A stretch of 64,000 nucleotides of DNA from the UHGV virus genome UHGV-0026213; one strand, 5' to 3'. The position numbers and the translations under genes are program-made. Position 1 is the first letter of the stretch. Each line of letters begins with the position of its first letter. The notes beneath the pieces are model-generated. The model searched no databases and was not told where the DNA came from. It saw nothing but the letters and a program-made list of their open reading frames with translations. The DNA comes from a virus. Below, piece by piece: positions 27,169 through 28,111 of this stretch.

Positions 27169-27195
27169 CGCAAAATCGACATAGGTGATGAGTTC

Positions 27196-27396
27196 ATGAA
27201 ACATGAACTGCTGTTTCGACGGTTAAACGAGTTGTCAACAAAACAACTTGAGTTTCAGCGAAGGGTTAGTGAAATAACGCGACCAACGTTGCATATCCAA
27301 GAAACACCCAGTTGGCAGTTGAGAGGAGGTAACAACCTAAAGGGGAGTGCGCCAACACTCCCCATAGGCGCTTTATCTTTTCGAAAGAGAAGATAA
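27196..27396 (+). CDS. small protein, divergent member of tandem paralogue family
   Basis: Shares core KQLEFQRRVSE with the two downstream small ORFs; 3' end runs through a hairpin. Confidence 0.35.
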   Translation: MKHELLFRRLNELSTKQLEFQRRVSEITRPTLHIQETPSWQLRGGNNLKGSAPTLPIGALSFRKRR

Positions 27397-27453
27397 AGCA
27401 GTAGGGACTGCCGGTACAGTCCCTACTTGTTGCTATTACACCCGCGTAATAGC
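27371..27453 (+). repeat. three-hairpin structured element, copy 1
   Basis: Hairpins at 27371-27398, 27401-27426, 27432-27453; copy 2 lies 320 nt downstream. Confidence 0.5.
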
Positions 27454-27482
27454 TTAATCCCCAACTCGTGTGAGGTTTTAAC

Positions 27483-27653
27483 ATGACTAACAACAATACA
27501 CGTATCTTTACTTCTATCTCAAACAGCTATGCAGAACAAGCGAGGTTTAATGAACGATTAAGAGAAGTTCAACAGCTAGGATTAAATAAAAGGCTTAAAC
27601 CTTCTAATAATCCTCGAGTACAAATCTTCACCGAAAGGAGAAGTAACTACTAA
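27483..27653 (+). CDS. small protein (56 aa), tandem paralogue family
   Basis: Not in ORF track; RBS GAGGT; paralogous to 27807 ORF; terminator follows. Confidence 0.45.
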   Translation: MTNNNTRIFTSISNSYAEQARFNERLREVQQLGLNKRLKPSNNPRVQIFTERRSNY

Positions 27654-27663
27654 ATAAAATAAA

Positions 27664-27685
27664 GGGGTGGTGAAGCACCCCTTTT
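27664..27685 (+). terminator. intrinsic terminator
   Basis: GGGGTG-GTGAAG-CACCCC then TTTT. Confidence 0.55.
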
Positions 27686-27690
27686 CATAG

Positions 27691-27776
27691 CTTTAACTTT
27701 TCGAAAGAGAAGTTAAAGCAGCAGAGACTGGCGGAACAGTCTCTGCTGTACGGTGTCAACACATAAAGTTGTTGAC
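27691..27776 (+). repeat. three-hairpin structured element, copy 2
   Basis: Hairpins at 27691-27718, 27721-27746, 27755-27776; stems differ from copy 1 by paired compensatory substitutions. Confidence 0.5.
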
Positions 27777-27806
27777 GTTTTTACAACATTACAAAAGGTA
27801 ATGAAA

Positions 27807-27968
27807 ATGAACGAATATCAAATACAGATGTTCAATACCGCGATGCGAAATCGTGAAAAACAAATTCAGTTTAACCAACGCATGGACGAATATGTTCGTC
27901 TCGGCCTCGTTGCGGCACCGAAAACGGTTAACAACCACAATGTTCACCAACCACCTGTAAGGAGATAA
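27807..27968 (+). CDS. small protein (53 aa), tandem paralogue family
   Basis: RBS AAGGT; motif F..Q..FN.R..E...LGL shared with 27483 ORF. Confidence 0.45.
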   Translation: MNEYQIQMFNTAMRNREKQIQFNQRMDEYVRLGLVAAPKTVNNHNVHQPPVRR

Positions 27969-28111
27969 GTTACTAACTAATAAAGGGGGTGTTGTCACCA
28001 CCCCCTACTTAGTTCAGTAGTTGTTTCCCGTTCATAATTAATAGCCTTCTGTTTTTTTTTGTTTTTCGAGACGCATAAGGGGTCATAAGGGGGAGCCGAA
28101 GCTCCCCAGAC

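Follow-up and report, generated by a model that had tools for sequence, protein, structure and literature searches.

Clusters of intercistronic palindromes are well known from enterobacterial operons, where the REP/BIME elements make the upstream mRNA more stable, dampen transcription and provide sites for recombination. Other hairpins define or protect the ends of messages, as do the RNase III hairpins of T7 early mRNA and the 5' stabiliser hairpins of ompA and T4 gene 32; the duplex cleaved at a T7-type RNase III site is some two helical turns long and in most cases contains an internal loop. The boxB element of phage lambda is a short stem with a conserved GNRA-like GAAAA or GAAGA pentaloop and a boxA nearby, and the nutL-N-tL1 region presents the order hairpin, small gene, terminator, while the put element of HK022 comprises two stem-loops that act in cis on the host RNA polymerase and suppress downstream terminators. 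PhiKZ-type jumbo phages transcribe their genomes with RNA polymerases of their own, and to our knowledge little is known of message punctuation, stability and regulation in these phages. The PeSLs of T4-type phages are mobile regulatory cassettes made of an early promoter together with a stem-loop (PMC2839356, PMC4122927), and the terminators of phiKZ have a conserved TTAT tail and include bidirectional termination regions with two opposed sites (PMC10914365). The present analysis concerns a spacer of successive hairpins, termed T, A, B and C, that is repeated between small genes at a single locus of UHGV virus genome UHGV-0026213, of which a 64,000-nucleotide stretch was analysed (this whole stretch is the window).

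The locus resembles each of these systems in part. Like the REP/BIME elements, T-A-B is an intercistronic palindrome cluster to which such roles could be ascribed, but it is phage-borne and confined to one locus, and a search of 5,426 E. coli genomes found one copy of this phage as the sole similarity to the element. The likeness to RNase III sites and stabiliser hairpins is one of layout only, that of structured elements between the cistrons of a phage early transcript; A measures 13 bp, or 24 bp when stacking on B is counted, and lacks an internal loop. With lambda nut and HK022 put it shares a GAAA/GAAAA loop or two adjacent hairpins in the leader of a small basic-helix gene with a terminator. 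However, the A stem has 13 bp, its loops include CAAA, CGAA and GGGAG, there is no boxA-like conserved single-stranded motif, the array proteins differ from N in not being arginine-rich, and the RNA polymerases at work are presumably non-canonical ones of the phage itself; neither sequence similarity nor an Rfam match links it to these elements, and put shares the two-adjacent-hairpin layout only. Of the known systems the PeSLs come closest: both are conserved repeats of ~100 bp in intergenic DNA that include a stem-loop of the terminator type, flank small ORFans in hyperplastic regions and, as was found here, lie at indel and replacement junctions between close relatives. Whereas PeSLs carry a strong sigma-70-type early promoter and are dispersed over several hyperplastic regions, T-A-B has neither a sigma-70 promoter nor any other recognisable one, occupies a single locus, adds hairpins A and B with pairing specific to the plus strand, and belongs to a jumbo phage of the phiKZ type, which encodes RNA polymerases of its own. 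Two defining features of PeSLs, the promoter and the dispersal over the genome, are missing, and T-A-B, which judging from its sequence and context works like the T4 PeSLs, is not a member of their family. The GC hairpin and TTAT/U-rich tail of phiKZ-type terminators are recognisable in T0, T2 and T3 on both strands, in T1 mainly on the minus strand and in B on the minus strand only, but A and B keep their pairing by G.U on the plus strand only, several B types have no plus-strand U-tail, and the AU-rich A is without counterpart in the described terminator motifs (PMC10914365; for 201phi2-1, PMC11512511).

Hairpin spacers of the array

Region 27120-28110 of the window is a hypervariable array of small ORFan genes, with a Zn-ribbon gene on its left and a convergent helicase gene on its right. 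An earlier note on this DNA had described three small open reading frames (ORFs) here, the second and third preceded by the same arrangement of hairpins, and the ORFs and the hairpins are indeed present in the sequence. Both of the 150-nt intergenic stretches form four consecutive hairpins on the plus strand (z = -8.5 and -8.8), with a fold energy of about -65.7 kcal/mol versus about -32 kcal/mol for shuffled sequences. The array and its boundaries are made up as follows.

26304-27119, plus strand: Zn-ribbon protein gene, left boundary of the array, with a candidate early promoter motif upstream at 26037
27125-27152, plus strand: hairpin T0, ACCCCTAATCC-cgaaaa-GGATTAGGGGT with tail ACACTTTATTTATTTTCG, of the bidirectional terminator type, after the Zn-ribbon gene
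27196-27396, plus strand: small ORF 1, type a, a frameshifted allele of which about the first 30 codons match an intact protein of 52 amino acids (…QLIVERRSN)
27342-27363, plus strand: GC-rich hairpin T1, GGGGAGTG-cgccaa-CACTCCCC, terminator-like mainly on the minus strand, its plus-strand tail AUAGGCGC being U-poor
27370-27399, plus strand: hairpin A copy 1, AU-rich, its stem of 13 bp containing a U.G pair and its loop being GAAA
27400-27427, plus strand: hairpin B copy 1, AGTAGGGACTG-ccggta-CAGTCCCTACT, abutting A directly
27432-27453, plus strand: hairpin C1, GCTATTAC-acccgc-GTAATAGC, part of the ORF 2 leader, travelling with type-b genes
27483-27653, plus strand: small ORF 2, type b, 56 amino acids, with a long N-terminal helix in the AlphaFold2 (AF2) model
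27661-27684, plus strand: hairpin T2, AAAGGGGTG-gtgaag-CACCCCTTT, of the bidirectional terminator type, with an A-tract upstream and tail UUUUCAUAGC
27690-27719, plus strand: hairpin A copy 2, with A-U at pair 7 (U-A in copy 1)
27720-27747, plus strand: hairpin B copy 2, AGCAGAGACTG-gcggaa-CAGTCTCTGCT
27754-27777, plus strand: hairpin C2 (GTCAACA-cataaagt-TGTTGAC), part of the ORF 3 leader
27807-27968, plus strand: small ORF 3, type c, 53 amino acids, the second ATG being the conserved start
27984-28006, unstranded: terminator hairpin T3, common to the array and the convergent helicase unit, with a loop that is reverse-complemented in relatives
28112-29674, minus strand: DnaB-like replicative helicase gene, convergent, right boundary of the array

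Hairpin T consists of a GC-rich stem with an A-rich tract, including stop codons, upstream, a UUAU/UUUU tail downstream and a free loop. Hairpin A in full reads GCUUUAUCUUUUC-GAAA-GAGAAGAUAAAGC; its stem has 13 bp, one of them a U.G wobble, and its loop 4 nt. The earlier note had recognised A in both copies and had given it a 10-nt loop, ttcgaaagag; with the longer stem, most of that loop is stem. Similarly, B had been placed two nucleotides after A, but with full stems the 11-bp B starts at the base directly after it. Together the two hairpins form a 58-nt direct repeat (27370-27427 and 27690-27747) with 86% identity, whose 8 differences comprise one compensated pair in stem A, two in stem B and two bases in loop B. 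These are the compensated changes that had been reported earlier, and at least three such pairs arise from 8 random substitutions with P ~1e-4 (1,000,000 placements simulated).

Relatives were gathered by scanning IMG/VR and metagenome contigs for the pattern, by searching for the locus with proteins as anchors and by looking up the encoding contigs. The compared sequences are labelled with L-numbers, L001 being SPN3US, L154 NZ_CP173450.1 and L155 NZ_CP134650.1; L128 (CYGL01000001.1), a noisy assembly with many homopolymer indels, was set aside. About 15 related phage genomes were recovered, and they bring the number of distinct A-B copies to 26 in all. Across 20 aligned copies 98.8% of cells pair, compared with 44-59% when the partner is slid. 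Covariation in relatives, for which the earlier note had proposed a search, is borne out by hairpin B, a GC-rich 11-bp hairpin in which 7 of the 11 pairs change on both sides and the 6-nt loop is hypervariable. In the A stem, 12 of the 13 pairs are unvarying, among them the U.G at pair 11, whereas pair 7 may be U-A, A-U or G.U and in a single case is A.A. The A loop, held earlier to be invariant and sequence-specific, is identical only within the window; five variants (GAAA, CAAA, CGAA, GAAAA and GGGAG), all purine-rich, were found among the copies. The C hairpins are cassette-specific, and B and C types travel with the type of the downstream ORF. C2 has a stem with covariation in L031 and L155 and a loop that is kept and never flipped. 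In C1-type cassettes, a spacer CATAGC could pair with GCTAT of C1, which hints at alternative pairings.

Among the relatives recovered, genuine A-B copies are confined to this clade and to this array, with two copies in the 64-kb window and one in the complete 221,873-bp genome NZ_CP173450.1. A covariance model built from 20 copies found zero additional copies in the window and, in relatives, gave weak matches (~20-24 bit) to analogous structures of SPN3US, L166 and L167. Exact searches with the 16-mer CTTTTCGAAAGAGAAG matched 48 IMG/VR stretches, of which 2 were real and the others were chance matches or belonged to an unrelated recurrent element. This other structured element, of the form …GTTAGCGGGGGTG(N3)GCCGCCCCGTCAGGCC(TT/AA)GGCCTTTTCGAAAGAGAAGG(T/C)CCACGTGAGG…, was found in IMG/VR contigs L004, L005, L008, L009, L032, L033, L035, L038, L040-L042, L046 and L050, lies ~70 nt upstream of a tRNA gene in L008, and matched no Rfam family. 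At the nucleotide level the 1-kb region matched none of 50,697 phage records searched, and no Rfam family was matched at gathering thresholds over the whole window, the best sub-threshold match being the ylbH leader at 25 bits versus a threshold of 50; a scan for tRNA genes was negative. A search for host-derived repeats in E. coli genomes and plasmids yielded only two ~222-kb copies of the same phage type.

Strand specificity of hairpins A and B

Whether the hairpins act in RNA or in DNA had been left open by the earlier note, and the wobble pairs answer in favour of plus-strand RNA. In the 26 distinct copies, A pairs at 99.4% on the plus strand and 90.8% on the minus strand, and B at 99.3% and 97.6%, respectively. 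G.U and U.G wobbles in A and B amount to about 7 independent events on the plus strand and 0 on the minus strand, and every departure from Watson-Crick pairing that preserves pairing in these hairpins is a G.U on the plus strand. In A these are the invariant U.G, the G.U at pair 7 in the L088/L129/L181 allele and an extra U.G in L173; in B they occur in L031, L113/L178, L129 and L181, making 5 cells versus 0 on the minus strand. Wobbles in T fall on both strands (5 vs 4). The predicted fold of A copy 1 has an energy of -17.6 kcal/mol on the plus strand and -13.0 kcal/mol on the minus strand. L173, the most divergent copy, has a closing pair of A changed from C-G to U-A, a second U.G and a GGGAG loop, and still keeps the 13-bp plus-strand stem although its upstream T is degenerate. 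In the same sequence (1370-1450), a 10-bp helix, GUGACAGCGU/ACGCUGUUAC, encloses both A and B, and the resulting fold is Y-shaped.

Loop orientation provides a further contrast between the hairpins. The A loop is reverse-complemented in 0 of the 26 copies, while in at least eleven instances a loop of T, T3, B or X is the exact reverse complement of its counterpart in a near-identical phage (window compared with L031, L047, L055, L059, L072, L088, L129, L134, L154 and L173). Examples of flipped loops are TTGTCAC vs GTGACAA in T3, and TATAGG vs CCTATA, CGCCAA vs TTGGCG and CGGTAA vs TTACCG in B; the T0 loop probably flips too, and those of A and C2 never do. To judge from such pairs, small hairpin-mediated inversions seem to outpace point substitution at the locus. 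Because wobbles occur on the plus strand only, the stem is retained in L173 and the A loop is fixed in orientation, a function of A-B as RNA of the plus strand, the strand of the small genes, is favoured. The frequency of loop inversions also means that compensatory arm changes alone are no proof of selection at the RNA level; the earlier claim of selection on structure thus stands as regards pairing, for which the hairpins are selected, but not as a simple deduction from compensation.

More distant phages hold a similar arrangement in unrelated sequence. In SPN3US, L163, L166 and L167 two GC hairpins stand at the same locus with an AU-rich one between them, which consists of a U-tract followed by an A-tract. 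Arm lengths of these analogous hairpins change in step (TTTATTTTC/GAAAATAAA vs TTTATTTTTTC/GAAAAAATAAA), and the three-hairpin layout persists in phages whose helicase is just 74-83% identical. Phages without small ORFs have a single terminator here, composed of A-tract, hairpin and U-tract.

Small genes and cassette exchange

The three small ORFs are paralogues, as had been suggested, and are also real genes. For ORF 2 compared with L088, synonymous divergence (pS) is 0.20 and non-synonymous divergence (pN) 0.008; between alleles the former reaches 0.2-0.3 and the latter 0-0.06, with pN/pS of ~0.04-0.25 in the better-sampled pairs. Since pN/pS is far below 1, the small genes are, by the measure of these alignments, real proteins under purifying selection. 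The frameshift in ORF 1 is caused by a 16-nt deletion relative to the intact alleles of L031, L055 and L128; the shifted frame traverses the terminator hairpin T1 and comes to its stop codon within the 3' arm of A copy 1, and the ancestral frame would end VERR* near 27331. The same deletion is present in L088 and L129, where the stop comes earlier.

Like SPN3US gp194 and gp195, the small proteins of the window have ~45-60 amino acids, are encoded between Zn-ribbon and helicase genes and contain a KQxxFxQRxxE helix. The paralogues share the KQxxFxQRxxE face on a long confident helix, the AF2 model showing a single confident long N-terminal helix and a floppy tail. A profile search with the small proteins, another of the checks proposed earlier, found 63 family proteins, all of them unannotated, the largest contigs carrying them being ~220-244 kb, as large as the genomes of this phage group. 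No family was matched in Pfam and PHROG searches with the small proteins, and their alignment contains no conserved block to anchor a family-wide locus search. The number of small genes in the array ranges from 1 to 4, and at least six paralogous types, termed a to f, occur. At the same locus SPN3US has two related genes (gp194 and gp195), L163, L164 and L166 have one each, and phiEaH2 and Asesino have none.

Among the neighbouring genes of the window are matches to the major capsid protein of PhiKZ and to further structural families of the phiKZ type, and its divergent DnaB-like helicase is 83-85% identical to the helicases of Erwinia phage phiEaH2 (85%) and Salmonella phage SPN3US. Because of these structural matches and helicase identities, the window is assigned to a new SPN3US/phiEaH2-like jumbo phage of the phiKZ type. 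The same phage type has been deposited as ~222-kb circular 'plasmids' in L154 (NZ_CP173450.1), from a urinary E. coli isolate, and L155 (NZ_CP134650.1), from a gull Enterobacter ludwigii isolate, in each of which the PGAP annotation includes just one small gene.

Close relatives differ by whole cassettes. The window and L059 have identical flanks and different cassettes, and L055 is the same as L134 as far as CATAGCTTTA, in front of A, and beyond that point the same as copy 2 of L047. With the CGAA loop allele the upstream spacer stays constant and the B type varies, and with the CAAA allele the B side stays constant and the spacer varies, from which it follows that crossovers fall in both arms of A. 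Truncated ORF remnants mark several junctions, and at the b'-to-d junctions of L031, L072, L098 and L174 both T and A are missing, with a B-type hairpin directly after the stop codon. A-B retains 86% identity from one cassette to another where the genes are down to ~30% at the protein level, so that the spacer evolves in concert while the genes diverge. The junctions show A, as a nearly invariant stretch of 30 nt, together with the neighbouring T, evidently supplying the homology for deletion, duplication and exchange of cassettes among close relatives. This hyperplastic ORFan cassette array, with the repeat as its apparent crossover point, is the main context of the element and was absent from the earlier note.

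Transcription signals and possible roles of the spacer

The motif AGATAkATwTTAC followed by AGGTGAGAG occurs at 17782-17794, 26037-26049 and 52849-52861, with weaker instances at 32590 and 46225, and AGATA(G/T)AT(A/T)TTAC is a good candidate for the consensus of the phage early (virion RNA polymerase) promoter. It sits 3' of terminators and 5' of genes and is followed by c(t)tAGGTGAGAG, with a small hairpin after the instances at 17782 and 52849. Directly 3' of the candidate promoter upstream of the Zn-ribbon gene lies a conserved ORF of 47 amino acids (26106-26249) with a hydrophobic segment (MISVKHKKAIFAVVIAVVLGCLYL…), followed by a small GC hairpin (26257-26272); a similar ORF of 45 amino acids is kept in relatives to ~70% helicase identity. 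Two other promoter candidates were rejected: the T0 tail and A 5' arm as a recurring promoter motif, which proved to be an ordinary terminator tail, and A as a lookalike of the candidate early promoter, to which it bears no resemblance. A literature search for SPN3US transcript maps found none. Just past the 3' end of the helicase gene (28048-28080), the window contains a T-run, G, 7-10 nt and GGAC(G/A)CATAA, a motif also present in SPN3US (L001, 5600-5650, reverse strand), L002 and L163, with helicases 79-85% identical to that of the window, and conserved even in phages without small ORFs.

Most terminator hairpins listed in the window consist of a GC hairpin and then TTTATTTTTTTT. Terminators with the conserved tail lie at 2717-2744 and 8076-8103, and also at 17751, 20263, 32561, 52836 and 62982; the hairpin TTACCCTACTCC-cgaa-GGAGTAGGGTAA occurs identically twice in the window, and phiEaH2 also uses CCCTACTCC/GGAGTAGGG, which resembles the conserved-sequence terminators of phiKZ. 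The T0 tail agrees with this tail, and T0 is homologous to the 5' arm and loop of an A'-type hairpin in L163.

The explanation that accounts best for these observations, to which about an even chance is given on sequence comparison, is that T-A-B(-C) is a repeated, locus-specific intercistronic module of the small-ORFan array and acts as folded plus-strand (mRNA-sense) RNA. Its molecular role is suggested by the layout. The intrinsic-terminator-type hairpin T would end the upstream minigene and cap the 3' end of its message, and the U/A-rich tracts on both sides of T make attenuation of transcription in both directions probable. Hairpins A and B, stacked directly on each other, would belong to the leader of the downstream minigene, and C would be a gene-specific leader hairpin ahead of the ribosome-binding site. 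The minigenes are likely to be read within an early transcript that passes leaky T hairpins, because the early motif at 26037 lies upstream and no promoter-like site lies inside the array. T-A-B-C would fold the entire untranslated spacer into duplex, with A hiding the U-rich tract after T, and A-B would give the downstream message a stable structure at its 5' end or close to it. Individual messages could thereby acquire stable ends, serving as punctuation and as protection against endonucleolytic decay or processing; processing, protein binding or control of read-through are further possible roles.

Several observations weigh against this explanation. A-B is missing before the first array gene and at the b'-to-d junctions, and as minigenes without A-B exist, A-B is not required for expression. 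The near invariance of the A stem (12/13 pairs) means that direct covariation support for A comes from pair 7 and the single divergent L173 copy. Template switching within palindromes is active at the locus and could yield correlated arm changes without selection. On the minus strand, B followed by GCUUUAUCUUCUCUUUC resembles a canonical terminator of this phage, the B-like hairpin of L163/L164 has a wobble on the minus strand, and a single A.C mismatch in the 11-bp stem B would not abolish folding of the minus strand.

The minus-strand features of B are the starting point of an alternative in which the spacer consists of back-to-back convergent terminators, T ending plus-strand transcription, B ending antisense transcription from the helicase unit, and A being no more than their facing U-rich tails, both of the TTTAT type and hence palindromic in appearance. 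The prevalence of the TTTATTTTTTTT tail among the terminator hairpins listed in the window fits this proposal, as do the precedent of TTAT tails and opposed termination sites in phiKZ (PMC10914365), the calling of B on the minus strand by a terminator scan, and a mean T count in the 12-nt tail of B of 6.3 on the minus strand and 3.3 on the plus strand. The AU hairpin of SPN3US, L163, L166 and L167 is literally a U-tract and an A-tract between GC hairpins, and in phages that lack small ORFs this position is taken by one terminator of the A-tract/hairpin/U-tract form. However, all B wobbles are on the plus strand (5 cells to 0) and would be A.C mismatches in minus-strand RNA, and B would be redundant because T already has a good minus-strand tail. 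The 5' arm of A begins 6-10 nt past the T stem, too distant for a T tail, and is conserved in L173 despite the degenerate T; compensated changes in A (C-G to U-A, U-A to A-U and joint lengthening of the arms) are not needed for independent tails, and the A loop has a fixed orientation though it lies beyond any termination point. A pair of convergent terminators is therefore considered possible but fairly unlikely. Some of the same features, namely the A stem and U.G conserved across cassettes whose genes share just 15-40% identity and the strand-fixed, always purine-rich loop, would suit a protein-binding RNA operator, recognised by the small helical paralogues or another phage factor and controlling translation of the downstream minigene or read-through of T in an N/boxB-like manner. 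The paralogues offer a shared KQxxFxQRxxE face on a long confident helix, and the array order of hairpin, small gene and terminator recalls lambda nutL-N-tL1. A GNRA-type boxB fold is not kept among the loop variants (GAAA, CAAA, CGAA, GAAAA, GGGAG), though, the small proteins are not arginine-rich, A is absent at the first minigene and at some junctions, and the family has no annotation or Pfam/PHROG match, so that an operator in A is unlikely. The specific proposal that A is a strand-specific RNA operator read via the U.G pair and the purine-rich loop, by the paralogues or another jumbo-phage factor, is likewise doubtful. If it were true, each cassette of operator, minigene and terminator would be a self-contained autoregulated unit, for example with N/boxB-like read-through for a non-canonical phage RNA polymerase or with a signal for handling messages leaving the phage nucleus.

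Two further explanations dispense with a function in RNA. The spacer could be an element of DNA, whether a promoter cassette analogous to PeSLs, a palindromic protein site, or a cruciform or recombination hot spot beside the helicase gene, as cassette junctions inside T and A, the AT-rich 13-4-13 palindrome of A, and loop inversions, which show that hairpins or cruciforms form in DNA, would suggest, along with the T4-type PeSL precedent (PMC2839356, PMC4122927). A scan of 26000-29000 found no sigma-70-like promoter in T-A-B, the candidate early motif is absent from 27120-28110, and the phiKZ-type late TATG is absent from the intergenic stretches on reading the sequence; moreover, the half-sites are asymmetric (T.G), more so in L173, which fits RNA pairing better than a symmetric DNA site, and the element occurs at one locus only (2 copies in 64 kb; 1 in a complete 222-kb genome) rather than dispersed as PeSLs are. 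A DNA-level role is accordingly quite improbable. Finally, confinement of the copies to one locus, frequent recombination and loop flipping could be taken to mean that the repeat has no function and is the leftover of a tandem duplication, homogenised by gene conversion or template switching. This is very improbable, given stems and linkers that are almost unchanged, with variation just in the loops, between genomes whose synonymous divergence is 0.2-0.3, a three-hairpin layout that persists with unrelated sequence at 74-83% helicase identity, and A-B identity of 86% while cassette genes are down to ~30% protein identity.

The element is best filed with known kinds, joining the intercistronic structured spacers and the regulatory-recombination cassettes, here in a jumbo phage, and not as a new system. 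The fast-turnover ORFan genes of the array are likely host-interaction genes. The locus also indicates that the logic of PeSLs, in which regulatory repeats double as joints for ORFan recombination, exists outside the T4-type phages. For message punctuation, stability and regulation in jumbo phages, the locus offers a compact and comparatively well-sampled case, with 26 distinct copies, strand-specific covariation and natural presence/absence variants, and these natural variants are ready-made mutants with which the roles of the individual hairpins may be probed.

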